IMG/VR virus record: IMGVR_UViG_2531839587_000015
Source: a virus
Taxonomy: Duplodnaviria > Heunggongvirae > Uroviricota > Caudoviricetes
Strand: one strand, 5' to 3'
DNA: 34,485 nt
The notes under the pieces are model-generated. The model worked only from the letters and a program-made list of their open reading frames with translations. It had not been told where the DNA came from and ran no database searches. Position 1 is the stretch's first letter. Each line of letters opens with the position of its first letter. Shown here piece by piece: positions 1,067-34,485 of this stretch. The position numbers and the translations under genes were made by a program.

Positions 1067-1207
1067 TTACTGCTTACACTGTAAGAACGCCGCAAACTCC
1101 GCTCCCCAGAAGCTCATCCGTATTTCACACAGCGAACCGTGCAGCATCCAGATGATGAGGATTACCGTCACGCAGAACGTGATGGCCATAAGCGATTTTT
1201 GCGACAT
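1067..1207 (-). CDS. Hok/Gef-family type I toxin, 46 aa (MSQKSLMAITFCVTVILIIWMLHGSLCEIRMSFWGAEFAAFLQCKQ)
   Basis: Own translation; absent from the ORF track because it is under 60 aa. Single TM helix plus the conserved SLCE(I/L)R and AAFLxCK motifs of HokA-like toxins. AAGGAG Shine-Dalgarno 10 nt upstream. Confidence 0.75.
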   Translation of the reverse strand: MSQKSLMAITFCVTVILIIWMLHGSLCEIRMSFWGAEFAAFLQCKQ

Positions 1208-1807: not shown

Positions 1808-2461
1808 TCAATTTTTAAGAGCGCCGATACAGAAAAATTGCATGACATTTTTCTTTATTGATTTAAATAGGCTAAATATTGTGATAGGTCTAAAGCTAGT
1901 CAACTCGCTGAATTCTTTTCTCATTTGGGAAAGTAACTGCCGACGTACTGATTCAATTTCTGCTGTTTGAGCTCTCAAATATCTTGAGAAATCAAGTAGT
2001 TCATCAGCTGTTTTGTTTTGGCTATTTATAAACGTAACAGGTTGCCCTGGCTTAGATATGAGAAAGAATTGATCAATTTTATCAAGTAATGGTGGAATTA
2101 TTTGTTTCCATTCAGCCCATTCTTTTTCACGATGAAACTCCAGGCTGTGCTGACATGCTCTGAGTTGCTGTATATCAATCGCCCAGACCTCACTCTCATC
2201 GAGGCAATCTTTCCATTTGCTAATTACATTAATGTCAAATTTTTTGTTCGGTCGATAATCTTCTTTGGCGCGCGCTTCCAGTATAGAGGCAAGGCTACCT
2301 GTATATTGCATCAAATTGGTAGATGCTCGGTTTACTAGCTCAGATATTCGATCTAGTTGAGTTGTTCTAATCTCAAGTGCTTTCTTTTTACGTTCATTTC
2401 GTAAAGCAAAATATGCAGCAAGGCAGACTGCAGCAACTGTGGCTGCTGGTTGCATATTCAT
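1808..2461 (-). CDS. Moron: membrane-anchored hypothetical protein, 217 aa (N-terminal TM helix QPAATVAAVCLAAYFAL + KKK, then a soluble alpha-rich domain); AT-rich
   Basis: ORF 1808-2485 in the track. Start placed at the Met at 2461, which has an AGGA SD 8 nt upstream. Lies between ogr and D, where P2 has no gene. GC clearly lower than the flanking phage genes. Confidence 0.6.
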   Translation of the reverse strand: MNMQPAATVAAVCLAAYFALRNERKKKALEIRTTQLDRISELVNRASTNLMQYTGSLASILEARAKEDYRPNKKFDINVISKWKDCLDESEVWAIDIQQLRACQHSLEFHREKEWAEWKQIIPPLLDKIDQFFLISKPGQPVTFINSQNKTADELLDFSRYLRAQTAEIESVRRQLLSQMRKEFSELTSFRPITIFSLFKSIKKNVMQFFCIGALKN

Positions 2462-2655
2462 AACATGGATCCTCTGACATGGCATTTATGGGCGCTATTT
2501 CAGCAGTAATCATTTGTGTGTAAATTTGTTTGCTACAAATTAACATATTCTAATGTAAGGTACTTCTGATTTTGACACTTGGTAGGCTGTCAGATTGGTT
2601 ATGATTCTTGCTGTAGGCGCGTTAACAAATGTCAGGGCTAATGCATCTAAGTTGT

Positions 2656-3753
2656 TTACTCTGTTTCTGCTATCCATTCCGGGATTTTTGCTTCAAGCTC
2701 AAGCTGAGTGGTAAAGCCGCTGTTGTCAATGGTGTGCTCGGCTTTTGCAATAATCCAGTCCTGATTGTCAATGTCACTTTTGAAGCCTGTCACCGTGCCA
2801 TGCATTTCGGGATAGAGTTCTGCACGTCCACACGCCAGCGTGATGGAGAACGCTGCGGCTCCGCGTTGTAGCTGCTGCCACTTTGCCGCCGCTGCACGTC
2901 TTGCTGCCTGCTCGTTCTGATAAGTCTTGCGTAACACAAACACGTTGCCTTCCGCGCCTTCCATATAGTCGCCTTCCCGGCTGCTGCTTTTCTCCTTTTT
3001 CGGTTTGCGGCGTTTCACGCTGACTTTTTTCTTTTTCCCGTAATTAAGATCAAGCCAGTAGGCGCGTACACCCGTATACGCCTCGCGGTCAGCAATGCGG
3101 AACTGATGGCGATCGCCGCTGCTGCGTGTGATGGCAACGATGGCAAGGCTGGCCCTGTGCGTTCACGCCACCGCCGGCATGATGAATAACAGATTACCGC
3201 TTTTTACCGTGGTGATTGCGCCCAGCATTTCCGCCATGCGCGTAAGGAAGGACATGTCGCTTTCTTCAGTCTGGTCGGCGTGGTCGATTTCGATATCCAT
3301 CAGCATTTCGCTGATTTGCGGTTTCAGACCATACCGATGAGCGATGGCGGATACCACACGCTCAATGGTCACATCATGCCAGGACACCTCACGTTTAACG
3401 TTAAATTCATCCCGAAAATCTGCGCTTCTGGCTGAAACAGTCAGCCTGTCCGGCGGTCCTTCGTGAGCGATTTCATCAACAATGTAAGTGCCTTTTTCTG
3501 TCAGCGGTTCTCCTTTCCAGCCAATGAGAACCGTCAGGCGCGCGCCCCGTGGCGGTAGCTGCAACTGACCATCCGCATCATCCAGCGTGATGGTGAGCTG
3601 GTCCGCTTCAAATCCCCGGTTGTCGGTCAGTGACAGGCTCATCAGGCGCTCTGCCACGCCGGACAGCGTTTTCCCCTCCGCGAGAATATCAAAATCCGGC
3701 ATTTTCACGGGGTCTGTGCTCTGACTGAGCAATTGCATGGTGGTGTCGGTCAT
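2656..3753 (-). pseudogene. D: gpD tail protein (P2 D homolog) interrupted by a single in-frame TGA at 3163-3165
   Basis: Track ORFs 3163-3774 and 2656-3018 are in the same frame. The stretch between them translates without stops (THRASLAIVAITRSSGDRHQFRIADREAYTGV...) and matches gpD on both sides. Start placed at the Met at 3753 with a GGGAGGG SD. Confidence 0.8.
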
Positions 3754-3909
3754 CTTTCCCTCCCTGTGCGGCATGGTCGCATGTGCGTGCGGAGGGGGTT
3801 ACTGCTTTTTGTTGTCGCCGTGGCGGGAGAACGGCGCAGGGGTGAGATTACGCGCGTGGTGGGTGATGATTGTTGCCGAATCATTTAACGGATACAAGGG
3901 GCTGAAGCT

Positions 3910-5087
3910 ATGAGTGAAACTCGTTTTCATGGTGCCCGTGTTACGGAAATACCGACCTGGTAACAGCGATTAAGATGTTGATTCCAGGTTATCGGTATCG
4001 TGGCAACGGCGGATGATGCGGAGCGAGCTGTTCCCGCTGAACAAGCCCACACTGCTGACCCGCGTCAATGACGTGCTGGGAAAATGCGGACAACGGGACG
4101 CTTTATCGTGCGCTTAAGGCCATCGCAGACCAGGTGAGCACAAAGGTGATCGTCGTTCGCGTGGCTGAACACAAAGAAGAAGACGGAAAGACGCAGGATC
4201 AACTGGTTATCGGTGGTTCTGAGGATGACGGCAGCTATACGGGGATGTATGCGCTGCTTGTTGCAGAGCAGGATGAAAGCATCGGATACCGTCCGCGTAT
4301 TCTGGCCGCGCCGGAGCTGGACACGGAGGCGGTAACAAAATCCCTGTGCGTGATTGCGGGTAAACTGCGCGCGTTTGTGTATGCCTCATGTCACGGCTGT
4401 AACACGATGGCTGAGGCGATTACCTACCGCCAGAAATTCAACGAACGTGAGGTGATGCTCTTATGGCCGGACTTCATCGCCTACAACCCGAAAAGTGGCA
4501 AAAACGAAACGTTCCCCGCGCCTGCCTATGCGTGCGGCCTTCGTGCGTACATTGACCATGAGCAGGGCTGGCACAAATCGCTGTCCAACGTTCCGGTTAA
4601 AAATGTGCTGGGGATGTCCAGGCATGTGTTCTGGTCGTTGCAGGCCGAAGACAGTGATGCCAACAGCCTCAACAACAAAGAAATCACGACCATTATTCGT
4701 CGCAATGGGTTCCGCTTCTGGGGCAACCGCACACCGGAAACGAACGCCTACATCTTTGAGGTGTATACCCGAACCGCACAGGTGCTGGCTGATTCAATTG
4801 CGGAAGCGCAGTTTGAAACCATCGACAGTCCACTGACGCCTGCGAACGTGAAAGATGTTATCAGTGCCATCAGGGCAAAACTGGATTCACTGGTTACTGC
4901 CGGGAAACTGATTGGGGCGTCGTGCTGGTATGACGTGGTGGATAACGGCACCACGAATTTACGTCAGGGGCGCGTGCGTATTCGCTACAAATATACGCCT
5001 GTTCCCCCGCTGGAAGACATGGAGCTTTACCAGTCGTTTACTGATGAATTCTTTGGTCCCGCATTTGCGGTGCTGGGAGGTGCCTGA
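3910..5087 (+). pseudogene. FI: gpFI tail sheath; the first ~175 bp are broken by stops and at least two +1 indels; intact sheath frame from about 4083 to 5087
   Basis: ATG at 3910 with an AAGGGG SD encodes MSETRFHGARVTEI and then hits TAA at 3961. Sheath-like segments IGIVATADDAE, ELFPLNKPTLLTRVNDVLGK and NADNGTLYRALKAIADQ lie in three different frames. Downstream 335 aa match the P2 sheath. Confidence 0.8.
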
Positions 5088-9478: not shown

Positions 9479-9487
9479 TTAACGCAA

Positions 9488-13759: not shown

Positions 13760-14337
13760 TGCGGGCCTCCTGTCGAATCGCTGCCACCTTTAACGCCACC
13801 GTGTTTATGCGTATGCACTGTGATGCCGTTTGAGGTGAAATCGCCGCCGCTGTGCGTGATATTGCCGCTCATCTTTCCTCCTTTTGTGACGTCAATCTCG
13901 GCTGTTCTCAGAAGGTTTGTGCATTCCACGACGGGCGTGTCCAGTGTCACGCTGACGGATGCCTGTAAAGTGGCCGTTTTCATGCCGCTGGCGCTCAGTG
14001 CGCCTGCGTCCGCGTCGTAGCGGAACACCGCGCCATCCGGCGCGCTGATCACGATTTCTTTCAGGCTTTTGCCGGGTGCCGGAATGGCATCACTCCACAG
14101 GCTGCCGATTATCATGGCGGTTTCCGGGTTGCCGCCAATGCAGGCAATTGCCACCTGTTCGCCTGGTGATGGCGGCAGCCACACATTGAAGGCTCCCGCG
14201 CGCGTGGTGTTCCAGCGCAACCAGCCTGTTTCCAGTTCGCCGCTGCGAACGCGCACGCACCAGGATTCCTCATCAACTTCAGAGATGATCCCGGTGCGGA
14301 TGATGTTGCTCAGCAGTCGCATGAGTTCTGCGCTCAC
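13756..14337 (-). CDS. V: gpV baseplate spike / assembly protein
   Basis: 193 aa. Synteny V-W-J-I-H and spike-like sequence. Confidence 0.85.
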   Translation of the reverse strand: MSAELMRLLSNIIRTGIISEVDEESWCVRVRSGELETGWLRWNTTRAGAFNVWLPPSPGEQVAIACIGGNPETAMIIGSLWSDAIPAPGKSLKEIVISAPDGAVFRYDADAGALSASGMKTATLQASVSVTLDTPVVECTNLLRTAEIDVTKGGKMSGNITHSGGDFTSNGITVHTHKHGGVKGGSDSTGGPQ

Positions 14338-14978
14338 CGTACAGCCTCCGCAATCCGGCCCAGCACCGTGTTATAAATCAGGCGCTCATCTGCCTGGCTG
14401 ATACCCAACAGCTCACGTACCGGGTAATCGGTGAAAATGCCCGGCGCAACCTGATCGCGCTCACCGAACTGATGAACGCGGGCAATACGTGCGGCCACGC
14501 CGCTGTAACCCACCGTCACACCGGAAGCATCTGCACGGGCTTTCAGGTAGCGGGCGGTGCGCAGTTTTACGAACATGGGGACGCGCTTTGTGCTGTCCTG
14601 GTTGATGCGCCGGGTGCGTATTTCCAGAAAACGGTCGATGTCATCCCGGTAAAACGTGCGGATATTGTTTTTATCCTCATCCCACCCGGTAATGGTTCGC
14701 CCGTATTTCCCCGTGTCGTGATGCCAGTTTTTCAGCGTGCGTGCTTCGTTATTCCAGATAAAGCGAATGCGCTCCTGTATCCGGGTTACGCGGCGTCTGC
14801 GTGGTGTCCACGCGGTCCCGTCCGGCGCTTTCTGTGACCGGATACGCGCCTGCTGGGCGCGGCGTAAATCCTGTGCCAGCTTTCTGGCGATGTTATTGAT
14901 GGCCTGCTGATTCAGGCTGTCGCGGATAGCCTCAAAGGTTTCATCCACGCGGGTGAATGCCTTATCCATCGCTTTCAC
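14334..14978 (-). CDS. S: gpS-like virion morphogenesis / tail completion protein
   Basis: 214 aa, between R and V. Longer than P2 S (150 aa). Confidence 0.7.
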   Translation of the reverse strand: MKAMDKAFTRVDETFEAIRDSLNQQAINNIARKLAQDLRRAQQARIRSQKAPDGTAWTPRRRRVTRIQERIRFIWNNEARTLKNWHHDTGKYGRTITGWDEDKNNIRTFYRDDIDRFLEIRTRRINQDSTKRVPMFVKLRTARYLKARADASGVTVGYSGVAARIARVHQFGERDQVAPGIFTDYPVRELLGISQADERLIYNTVLGRIAEAVR

Positions 14979-15399
14979 CCCACGTCACATCCTGGAATAC
15001 ATGCGACCAGTCGCCTTCGGAAGAGGGCAGGCGGGGTTTTGGCTCCGGCAGGTGTTCTGCCTGCGGTGTGCCCTGACTGCTGCGCGTGATGCGAACGCGT
15101 TCCCGCAGGGGGAGCGTAAACAGGAGATCGGCGCTGTCATCGTCATTGATAACGGCGGAGAATTTGATGTCCTGATTACGCTCAGGGTTGAGCAACAACT
15201 GTGGCTGATTTTCGGATAACCACGCCAGCAGCGGCAGCGTGAGGTCGTCCAGCTCCCCGGCGTAATCCATGACAAACATCACCATCTGATAGCGGTAAAC
15301 AAACGAGGGCGTTTCTCCGGTCGTTTCAATGTTGCCGCTCTCCACGAAAATGGTGAATTTTTCCGGGTTAGCCTGACACCATCGGCATGAACGGGTCAT
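14962..15399 (-). CDS. R: gpR tail completion protein (as an internal-Met product; the native MLKP... start appears to be out of frame)
   Basis: C-terminal 145 aa of track ORF 14962-15735 match P2 R (..FTIFVESGNIETTGE..LPLLAWLSENQP..). An ATG encoding MLKL lies 27 nt upstream in another frame. Confidence 0.7.
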   Translation of the reverse strand: MTRSCRWCQANPEKFTIFVESGNIETTGETPSFVYRYQMVMFVMDYAGELDDLTLPLLAWLSENQPQLLLNPERNQDIKFSAVINDDDSADLLFTLPLRERVRITRSSQGTPQAEHLPEPKPRLPSSEGDWSHVFQDVTWGESDG

Positions 15400-15705
15400 G
15401 GCTTCACGCAGGGAATCAGTTTCAGCATGGTTGTTATCCTCGTTGTTCAGTCGTTGCAGCCTGCGCTGTTCCAGTAATTCAATGGCCCGTTTATCAGCGT
15501 TACAGGTTTCCAGTGCATCCAGAAGGCGGTCGCCCCATATACCGAGATTTCCCCATGTGGGAGTATCAGGGAAGGGGGGAGGCGTTACCGGTATGGTCAG
15601 CGTCTGCGGTATAAGCCGGACTGACGGCGCTGGCAGTGGCGCGTTCTGCGTGCCTGCGCAGCCTGTCAGTAAAACGAGCGTCAGGCAAAGCGTGGGCGCA
15701 TTCAT
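15400..15705 (-). CDS. lysC: LysC-like o-spanin lipoprotein (Rz1 analog), embedded in lysB in another frame; its reading frame continues into R without a stop
   Basis: MNAPTLCLTLVLLTGCAGTQ is a lipoprotein signal with lipobox, followed by a Pro-rich segment. No stop codon before the R coding region. Confidence 0.55.
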
Positions 15706-33126: not shown

Positions 33127-33429
33127 ATGATTTTGGAGATTGGTGAAAAACTAAAACTAATGCGTGAAAGTGAGCGCATTACAAGTCGCAATGAGGCTGC
33201 GGAGTTAATAGGTATTCCGCATAACGCGCTATGGCGTTATGAGACTGGCGAATCCATACCCAAAGGGGATGTAATGATGAAAATCTTAAATTGCCCGCGG
33301 TTCGAAAAATATGCCTTGTGGTTTATGACTGGAAAAATTGCGCCTGAATCCGGGCAGGTAGCTCCGGCTCTCGCACACTATGGGCAAGAGCCAACGGACT
33401 TACCCCCATCCGAAAGGAAAATTGGTTAA
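33127..33429 (+). CDS. C: C immunity repressor
   Basis: ..KLKLMRESE....L..L.G.P...L..YE.G.S.P..DVMMKIL..P.F.KY.LWFMTGKIAPESGQVAPALAHYGQ closely matches the recalled P2 C repressor. Confidence 0.85.
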   Translation: MILEIGEKLKLMRESERITSRNEAAELIGIPHNALWRYETGESIPKGDVMMKILNCPRFEKYALWFMTGKIAPESGQVAPALAHYGQEPTDLPPSERKIG

Positions 33430-33495
33430 CCCTTTATTATTCTTACGTTTTACAAACTGGGAATGTCTTTCCTCGTTTCACCGGAGGGCTTGCCA

Positions 33496-34485
33496 ATGGC
33501 AATTAAGGCACTCGATGGTGGACGGTATAAAGTGGATGTTAGACCGCGTGGCCGAAGTGGACGTCGGATTCAGCGGATTTTTAAGAAAAAGGCAGATGCA
33601 GTGGCCTTTGAGCGCTATGTTCTCAGCCACATGCACGATAAGGAATGGCTTGAAAAGCCAACAGAGCAACGTCATCTCTCAGATCTGCTTCCATTATGGT
33701 GGGAATTGGGTGGACGCAATAAGCCATATGCTAACGGCGTTCTAACCAGATTGAAAAAAATCATCAAAGAAATGAATGATCCAAGGGTTAGCCAGATTAA
33801 TGCTCGTTTCATGGCAGCTTATCGAAGCTCCCGTTTATCCTTAGGAGTAAAAGAATCTACTGTTCGGCGTGATGAGTCGGATCTCGGAGGAATGTTTACA
33901 CTCCTGGCAAATGCCGGGGAATTTCACGGAGAAAATCCACTCCGCGCCCTCCCCTCTTTGAAACGAAAATCACCCGAAATGACGTACCTCACCACGGAAG
34001 AAATCGCCAAATTGCTGGATGCAGTAAGCGGTGATGCCCGGCGGATTACGCTACTTTGTCTCAGTACTGGGGCGAGATGGGGAGAAGCGAAAAATCTGCG
34101 CGCGGAACACATCATCAATAATCGCGTGACGTTTAACAAAACTAAAAACGGAAAAGTTCGAATTATTCCTGTCTCTGATGAGGTTGTTAGTGAGATCAAA
34201 ACAAAGAAATCCGGCCTTTTGTTTGACGTCAATTATGAGGAATATCGCAAGGTGCTTCGCAGTGTTAAGCCAGACCTACCAAAGGGACAGGCTGTACATG
34301 TTCTACGCCATACCTTTGCAGCTCACTTTATGATTAATGGAGGAAATATACTTACGCTCCAGCGAATTATGGGGCACGCCACGATTCAGCAAACTATGAC
34401 CTATGCGCACCTCGCTCCTGATTTCCTCCAGGATGCAATTTCACTTAATCCGTTAAAAGGAGGCATCCACATTTCATCCACATAA
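33496..34485 (+). CDS. int: P2-type tyrosine integrase
   Basis: MAIKALDGGRYKVDVRP... N-terminus like P2 Int. C-terminal catalytic region contains the R...HxxR...Y tyrosine recombinase pattern (..VLRHTFA.H..). Track ORF begins at 33463. Confidence 0.9.
   Translation: MAIKALDGGRYKVDVRPRGRSGRRIQRIFKKKADAVAFERYVLSHMHDKEWLEKPTEQRHLSDLLPLWWELGGRNKPYANGVLTRLKKIIKEMNDPRVSQINARFMAAYRSSRLSLGVKESTVRRDESDLGGMFTLLANAGEFHGENPLRALPSLKRKSPEMTYLTTEEIAKLLDAVSGDARRITLLCLSTGARWGEAKNLRAEHIINNRVTFNKTKNGKVRIIPVSDEVVSEIKTKKSGLLFDVNYEEYRKVLRSVKPDLPKGQAVHVLRHTFAAHFMINGGNILTLQRIMGHATIQQTMTYAHLAPDFLQDAISLNPLKGGIHISST

Follow-up and report, generated by a model that had tools for sequence, protein, structure and literature searches.

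Phage P2 carries its late genes in the order K/lysis genes, lysB/C, R, and S, and its lysC, which begins within lysB in the +1 frame, terminates out-of-frame inside R (P2p11-P2p13). The position of the lysC stop codon is described in the same way in a passage of PMC3091744, which cites Markov et al. 2004. In the annotation of the P2 record, lysB and lysC are non-essential and R is an essential tail gene. The overlap of lysC and R is 38 nt long in P2, compared to 14 nt in the RefSeq annotation of the P88-type phages (Xuanwuvirus). The R protein of P2 begins with MLKPDSLRRALTD, as the earlier note correctly stated, and that of the P88 clade with MLKTDSLREAMTR (P88), which has Thr at position 4.

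The stretch of DNA analysed here, referred to as the window, is the whole of a 34,485-nt IMG/VR virus record (IMGVR_UViG_2531839587_000015) and is a P88-like (Xuanwuvirus, Peduoviridae) E. coli prophage. A tblastn search with 30 P88 proteins located 27 of them in the window, arranged as in P2 and for the most part 95-100% identical, and the gene order is that of the P88 type (Q P O N M L X Y K lysB/C R S V W J I H ... FI FII E T U D, ogr). The best phage matches of the window are P88, P884B11, Chuche, and 520873. In P88 (gp32-gp34), lysC and R are annotated at the same places as in the window, and the structural proteins encoded between the portal and tail genes are mostly 95-100% identical. 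In contrast to these structural genes, the integrase and the C-type repressor (window 33148-34455) show 50% and 40% identity to P88, respectively, so that the module for immunity and integration differs from that of P88. No att site came to light in a tRNA scan. Apart from one base lost from the overlap in the window, P2 and the window agree in how the lysC and R frames lie relative to each other and in an R protein beginning MLK.DSLR. P2 differs in having lysA and a lysozyme-type K, whereas the endolysin of the window is an M15 peptidase, and the R proteins of the two are 40% identical. Between ogr (1398-1658) and D, the window holds a 225-aa ORF (1808-2485, minus strand) with no Pfam match, at a variable cargo position that is occupied by SIR2 and ATP-binding protein genes in E. 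coli strain 116333; a Hok/Gef gene is located at window 1067-1207.

One adenine is missing where lysC overlaps R

The features of the region are collected in Table 1, together with the other single-base deletions discussed below.

Table 1. Features of the lysB-lysC-R-S region and single-base deletions of the window (positions are those of the window).
Feature	Position	Strand	Basis or remark
Endolysin	15970-16362	-	Gene order around the junction: endolysin, lysB, lysC, R, S
lysB, Rz-like i-spanin, 135 aa, intact	15566..15973	-	tblastn, P88 gp32 residues 1-135, 97.8% identity
lysC portion of the fusion ORF (LysC 1-95), Rz1-like o-spanin lipoprotein	15421..15705	-	Pfam, RefSeq
Fusion ORF LysC(1-95)::R(4-155), 247 aa	14962..15705	-	Direct reading and Pfam
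R coding sequence, residues 4-155 and stop, now in the lysC frame	14962..15420	-	tblastn, Pfam
Shine-Dalgarno-like GAGGA	15437..15441	-	8 nt upstream of the native R ATG; identical in relatives
Native R start codon	15426..15428	-	Aligns with the annotated R start of P88, Chuche, and E. coli prophages
AAA run, site of the lost A (AAAA in relatives)	15420..15422	-	TTT on the plus strand; alignment
Stub ORF MLKLIPCVKP and TGA, 10 codons	15396..15428	-	Direct reading
ATG of R Met11, first Met in the R frame	15397..15399	-	Direct reading
Gene S, tail completion/virion morphogenesis, intact	14334..14969	-	tblastn, P88 S residues 1-211, 100% identity
Gene D deletions	3136, 3147, 3176	-	Within 42 nt; frame restored, split into ORFs 3163-3774 and 2656-3018
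FI (sheath) deletions	3947, 3974, 3988, 4023, 4025, 4090, 4095	+	FI read in three frames
N (major capsid) deletions	18721, 18723	-	GAGCGCGCG in relatives, GACGGCG in the window; two bases lost

The lysB product begins with a membrane helix (MKLWPTLGVAFLLIAGWG) at its N-terminus and shows a weak match to DUF2570 in Pfam, and the annotation of the relatives calls it an Rz-like spanin or DUF2570. A separate observation concerns 185-aa hybrids that join an N-terminal part of LysB to a C-terminal part of LysC. Many of these (among them P0062-P0065 and P0087-P0090) are present in the protein database, in clusters that number 102 and 99 members, and at the protein level one type of them shifts frame beside a run of six C residues at the end of lysB (window 15574-15579). 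These hybrids may represent recurrent frameshifts or errors in lysB.

The lysC ATG of the window (15705-15703) lies within lysB in the +1 frame and opens a frame encoding MNAPTLCLTLVLLTGCAG..., with the lipobox LLTG-C. The LysC profile of Pfam (PF23793) matches residues 12-76 of this frame (E = 5e-12, 46 bits, cut-off 27), and RefSeq labels the gene at the same place in relatives as 'Rz1-like lysis system protein LysC'. The profile match, the lipobox Cys, and the +1 start inside the i-spanin gene are thus all present, but in place of a short lipoprotein precursor of ~96 aa with a stop just inside R, the ORF comprises 247 aa. Its first stop codon is the TAA at 14964-14962, and it would count 257 aa from a GTG at 15735. 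The distal part of this ORF is R: the GpR profile (PF06891, P2-type tail completion protein) matches residues 97-222 with 130.8 bits (cut-off 25, E = 4.5e-38), and R residues 3-155 of P88 are found by tblastn at 99.3% identity. The match spans profile positions 5-133, i.e., it begins at position 5, and a full R protein with MLKxxSLR on its own start codon is not encoded; the native ATG is out-of-frame. The ATG of S overlaps the end of R.

The cause of this arrangement is seen at the junction itself. The minus strand of the window has ATGCTGAAACTGATTCC, with three A residues (15420-15422), where the relatives read ATGCTGAAAACTG, with four. In the alignment, ATGCTGAAACTG of the window is set against ATGCTGAAAACTG of Chuche, P88, and an E. 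coli prophage with one gap and no other difference there, and blastn places the same 1-nt gap against five of five full-length relatives. A lone gap in otherwise identical sequence is, as judged from this alignment, not a matter of chance. The closest phages (P88, P884B11, Chuche, PhiR44_2, 500465-2, and 520873) are 97.8-98.8% identical over 1.1 kb, and 13 phage records with full coverage of the lysB-R region show the same range of nucleotide identity there. Every phage match is one base longer than the window query, as are the E. coli chromosomes among the matches listed. The missing A falls inside the 14-nt overlap of lysC and R (ATGCTGAAAACTGA), which is one base shorter in the window. On the evidence of these comparisons, the prophage has lost one A of a run of four at the place where lysC overlaps R.

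With four adenines, lysC comprises 96 aa from the ATG at 15705 and ends in ...NNHAEN at a TGA located 14 nt into R, and R comprises 155 aa that match the GpR profile from position 1. The lysC frame runs one base ahead of the R frame, so that the loss of one base puts the two in register. The earlier note, made from the sequence alone, had proposed a 1-nt deletion at this junction that fuses the frames and destroys the native R start, and this proposal is borne out by the presence of AAAA in 125 of the 125 relatives examined. Its description of a LysC frame running from 15705 without a stop into a 247-aa LysC-R ORF agrees with the minus-strand reading and with the Pfam matches to LysC and GpR, and it was also right that a single inserted base ends LysC by TGA at 96 aa. 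The same insertion restores R, as had been expected, with a start that is MLKT instead of MLKP. The missing base, which had been placed at about 15417-15421, is an A of the AAAA run (AAA at 15420-15422 in the window). An ATG encoding MLKL does lie in another frame upstream of the first Met of R; the distance is 29 nt from start to start and not 27 nt. The gene arrangement itself is a known one, with P2 having lysC and R in matching frames and a longer overlap.

Occurrence of the three-adenine run and quality of the record

The run of three adenines is a rare derived state. Four adenines are present at all 125 loci examined, which comprise three annotated loci together with at least 120 IMG/VR loci and two representative genomes from a pattern scan that accepted three or four adenines alike. 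The exact 36-mer with three adenines has zero matches in IMG/VR, the GTDB representative genomes, and the JGI metagenomes, and the allele is not among the INPHARED relatives. Of 697 complete E. coli genome records with the junction, none reaches 99% identity to the 81 nt of the window, and 40 of the 40 junction matches listed are one base longer than the window. At the protein level, the 155-aa R whose residues are otherwise identical is found in at least 1000 contigs, compared to 28 contigs for the 145-aa form that begins at Met11; five of the ten listed among these 28 contigs just begin inside R. The 257-aa and 247-aa fusion ORFs are not on record in exact-protein look-ups; of the products looked up in this way, only the 145-aa one from Met11 led to the draft contig AQEG01000113.1 and to the other carriers described below. 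A protein with both LysC and GpR domains was not found among 5.8 billion cluster representatives, where the best query coverage was 62%. Five draft-assembly contigs start 8-27 nt before the ATG of Met11 in R. Breaks in assemblies are frequent at exactly the lysC/R junction, which probably forms an edge of sequence common to co-resident P2-like prophages.

The exact three-adenine junction is found in two further assemblies, namely the isolate contig AQAK01000085.1 (GCA_000358265.2) and scaffold_970 of the ENA metagenome assembly ERZ28645029. In the 4 kb around the junction, 39 and 32 positions, respectively, separate these from the window, and 39 separate them from each other. The nearest relative of the window over this distance is the ERZ28645029 scaffold, and AQAK01000085.1 ranks third. 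Both have a normal capsid gene and full-length called late proteins throughout, and no other frame-breaking indel was found in their 13-15 kb. Within ~500 nt of the deletion, the three carriers differ at two to four sites, which fits either descent with recombination or recurrent slippage. The earlier note had named related phages with the same sequence as what would speak against a deletion. Two other assemblies do carry it, which speaks in part to this point; since the shorter run is rare and derived, the reading as a deletion is left intact, and its presence in these assemblies shows that the deletion is probably real and not a sequencing error private to the window.

An independent frameshift at the same junction is present in CP015240.1 (CTGGAAAAC), where a G is gained ~30 nt upstream of position 2495 in the locus. 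In the resulting junction (ATGCTGGAAAACTG), the own ORF of R is reduced to MLEN and a stop, and lysC ends at a TGA overlapping Met11. The S gene of this prophage is truncated to 80 aa, which suggests decay. Broken GpR proteins on record thus include P0099 as well as this +G allele of CP015240.1.

The quality of the record itself deserves attention. The window is 100% identical over 20,438 nt to the E. coli draft contig AQEG01000113.1 (GCA_000354835.2), and against a panel of five relatives it shows 13 private single-base deletions, including that at lysC/R, and no private uncompensated insertion. As recorded, the essential virion genes are not all open: N, FI, D, and R are interrupted. At the start of FI, seven deletions fall in ~150 nt, with zero substitutions in 230 nt compared to P88, and the longest ORF, beginning at 4068, encodes 339 aa instead of 394. 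Two of these are homopolymer contractions, from four to three A residues at 3947 and from four to three G residues at 4095. The capsid gene N is split at residue 220 into products of 224 and 141 aa, and the 224-aa fragment is on record in AQEG01000113.1 only. Taken at face value, the deletions in D, FI, and N would describe a prophage without capsid, sheath, and D. Because they are deletion-only, clustered, and unaccompanied by substitutions, these 12 deletions look like assembly errors. Compared to four of the five relatives, the window also lacks single bases at 9481 and 9486, in the short spacer after gene U, with no evident coding effect.

It could be argued from this company that the lysC/R deletion is also an error of sequencing or assembly in a draft contig, and that the true prophage has four adenines with a normal lysC and R. 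Such an origin would be in keeping with a sequence that contains 12 other private deletions of one base, homopolymer contractions among them, and broken D, FI, and N genes. However, the lysC/R deletion is isolated and lies outside any cluster, and the same allele occurs on diverged backgrounds in two assemblies that are clean here, one of them a metagenome of a different project. Since the allele exists on backgrounds near that of the window, an isolated error at exactly this base is much less likely than carriage. We therefore regard an error as unlikely and consider it very probable that the deletion is real in this record. The run of three adenines is most likely a real, rare allele that occurs at low frequency in nature.

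Consequences for R and competing explanations

The loss of one adenine from the overlap would be an event of the replication-slippage type and non-programmed. Without its TGA, lysC would encode a 247-aa lipoprotein precursor carrying nearly all of R at its C-terminus. Initiation at the ribosome-binding site and ATG of R itself would yield a 10-residue peptide only. The TGA of this stub (15398-15396) overlaps the Met11 ATG (15399-15397) as ATGA, and this ATG is the sole remaining in-frame start for free R (145 aa). It is also where gene callers start R in AQEG01000113.1 and the other carriers. Met11 would thus be the only source of free R, at best through reinitiation at ATGA, and the product would lack the family-invariant MLKxxSLR. 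Tail assembly takes place in the cytoplasm. As for the fusion, it would consist of a Sec/Lol-targeted lipoprotein followed by a 152-residue cytoplasmic tail protein, so that R would be expected to exit the cytoplasm.

Among 18 GpR homologues with 36-95% identity, M1, L2, K3, and L7 show no variation and R8 reaches at least 90% conservation; no stretch of GpR is better conserved than residues 1-8, which the Met11 product lacks. All 18 homologues begin at one column, and residue 11 is usually Leu. Given this conservation of the MLKxxSLR N-terminus, the highest in the family, a defect is probable in R that starts at Met11, although the lysC overlap and the ribosome-binding site could account for part of the conservation. 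A PDB sequence search with R gave no meaningful match (the best was a designed protein, E = 0.31). Neither the truncated nor the fused product is expected to function, and the three-adenine allele is most likely a null or strongly hypomorphic allele of the essential tail gene R.

A more lenient view is that the deletion is real but tolerated, such that translation of the stub followed by AUGA reinitiation supplies enough R(11-155) for tail completion and the phage remains viable. The overlap of the stub TGA with the Met11 ATG is the classic layout of coupled genes, and the second frameshift, in CP015240.1, also couples Met11 directly to an upstream stop. Moreover, the allele stands on three haplotypes, and in two of these the late genes are otherwise intact over 13-15 kb. 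On the other hand, none of the 18 homologues starts at position 11, the residues that would be lost are the best conserved of R, and no SD-like sequence precedes Met11. The allele is also rare, with a few carriers compared to at least 1000 contigs of the full form, and absent from at least 120 IMG/VR loci and from the INPHARED relatives, and the 80-aa S gene of the CP015240.1 prophage suggests decay. We consider tolerance improbable. Still less probable is the fuller version of it, in which the stub is a leader ORF, R is made from Met11 by way of AUGA, MLKxxSLR is dispensable, and LysC-R perhaps has a role in lysis.

The idea that the shift is programmed, by a -1 slip on CUG-AAA-C, by transcriptional slippage, or with the LysC-R fusion as a deliberate product, can draw on two points: slipping back by one base after AAA could in theory regenerate MLKTDS... 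exactly, and P2-type phages do have one programmed frameshift elsewhere, E/E'. However, CUGAAAC does not contain an X XXY YYZ heptamer, and transcriptional slippage would need a run far longer than three A residues. The shifted arrangement is also not conserved, with the unshifted four adenines at 125 of the 125 loci examined, and the LysC plus GpR architecture is absent from the database proteins searched. A programmed frameshift or a deliberate fusion was rejected on the grounds of the missing slippery motif, the short run, and the state of the relatives, and we hold it to be extremely improbable.

The explanation that we favour overall, and that we consider probable, is a real, non-programmed loss of an A that inactivates R as a step in prophage decay. 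The comparisons show the deletion, its effect on the frames, its rarity, and its presence in three assemblies, and from these it is inferred that the loss is real in this record and that the altered products do not work. Single-base indels in short homopolymers of essential virion genes, each rare in the population, are also what is seen in the pseudogenes of cryptic or decaying prophages. The present case differs from ordinary prophage pseudogenes in that the indel falls in an overlap of two genes, joins two unrelated proteins, and leaves an internal start coupled by ATGA. It resembles the termination-reinitiation coupling by ATGA in phage operons, in which a stop overlaps the next start, to the extent that the stub stop overlaps the next in-frame ATG of R. 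Unlike such coupling, the layout here came about by chance through the deletion and has no conservation in relatives, and its product would lose ten conserved residues.

Meaning for annotation and for the phage family

The finding is an ordinary one: a rare and probably inactivating mutation in a known pair of overlapping genes of a well-known phage family, with no new mechanism. Its first consequence concerns annotation. R should here be annotated as frameshifted (pseudogene), and the 247-aa 'LysC-R' ORF is not a new fusion protein. Because AQEG01000113.1 contains many single-base deletions in essential genes, other odd ORFs of the window need the same check. For P88-like prophages, the locus is an example of how one base in an overlap of two genes alters two proteins at once, and the same rare allele is carried by three assemblies.
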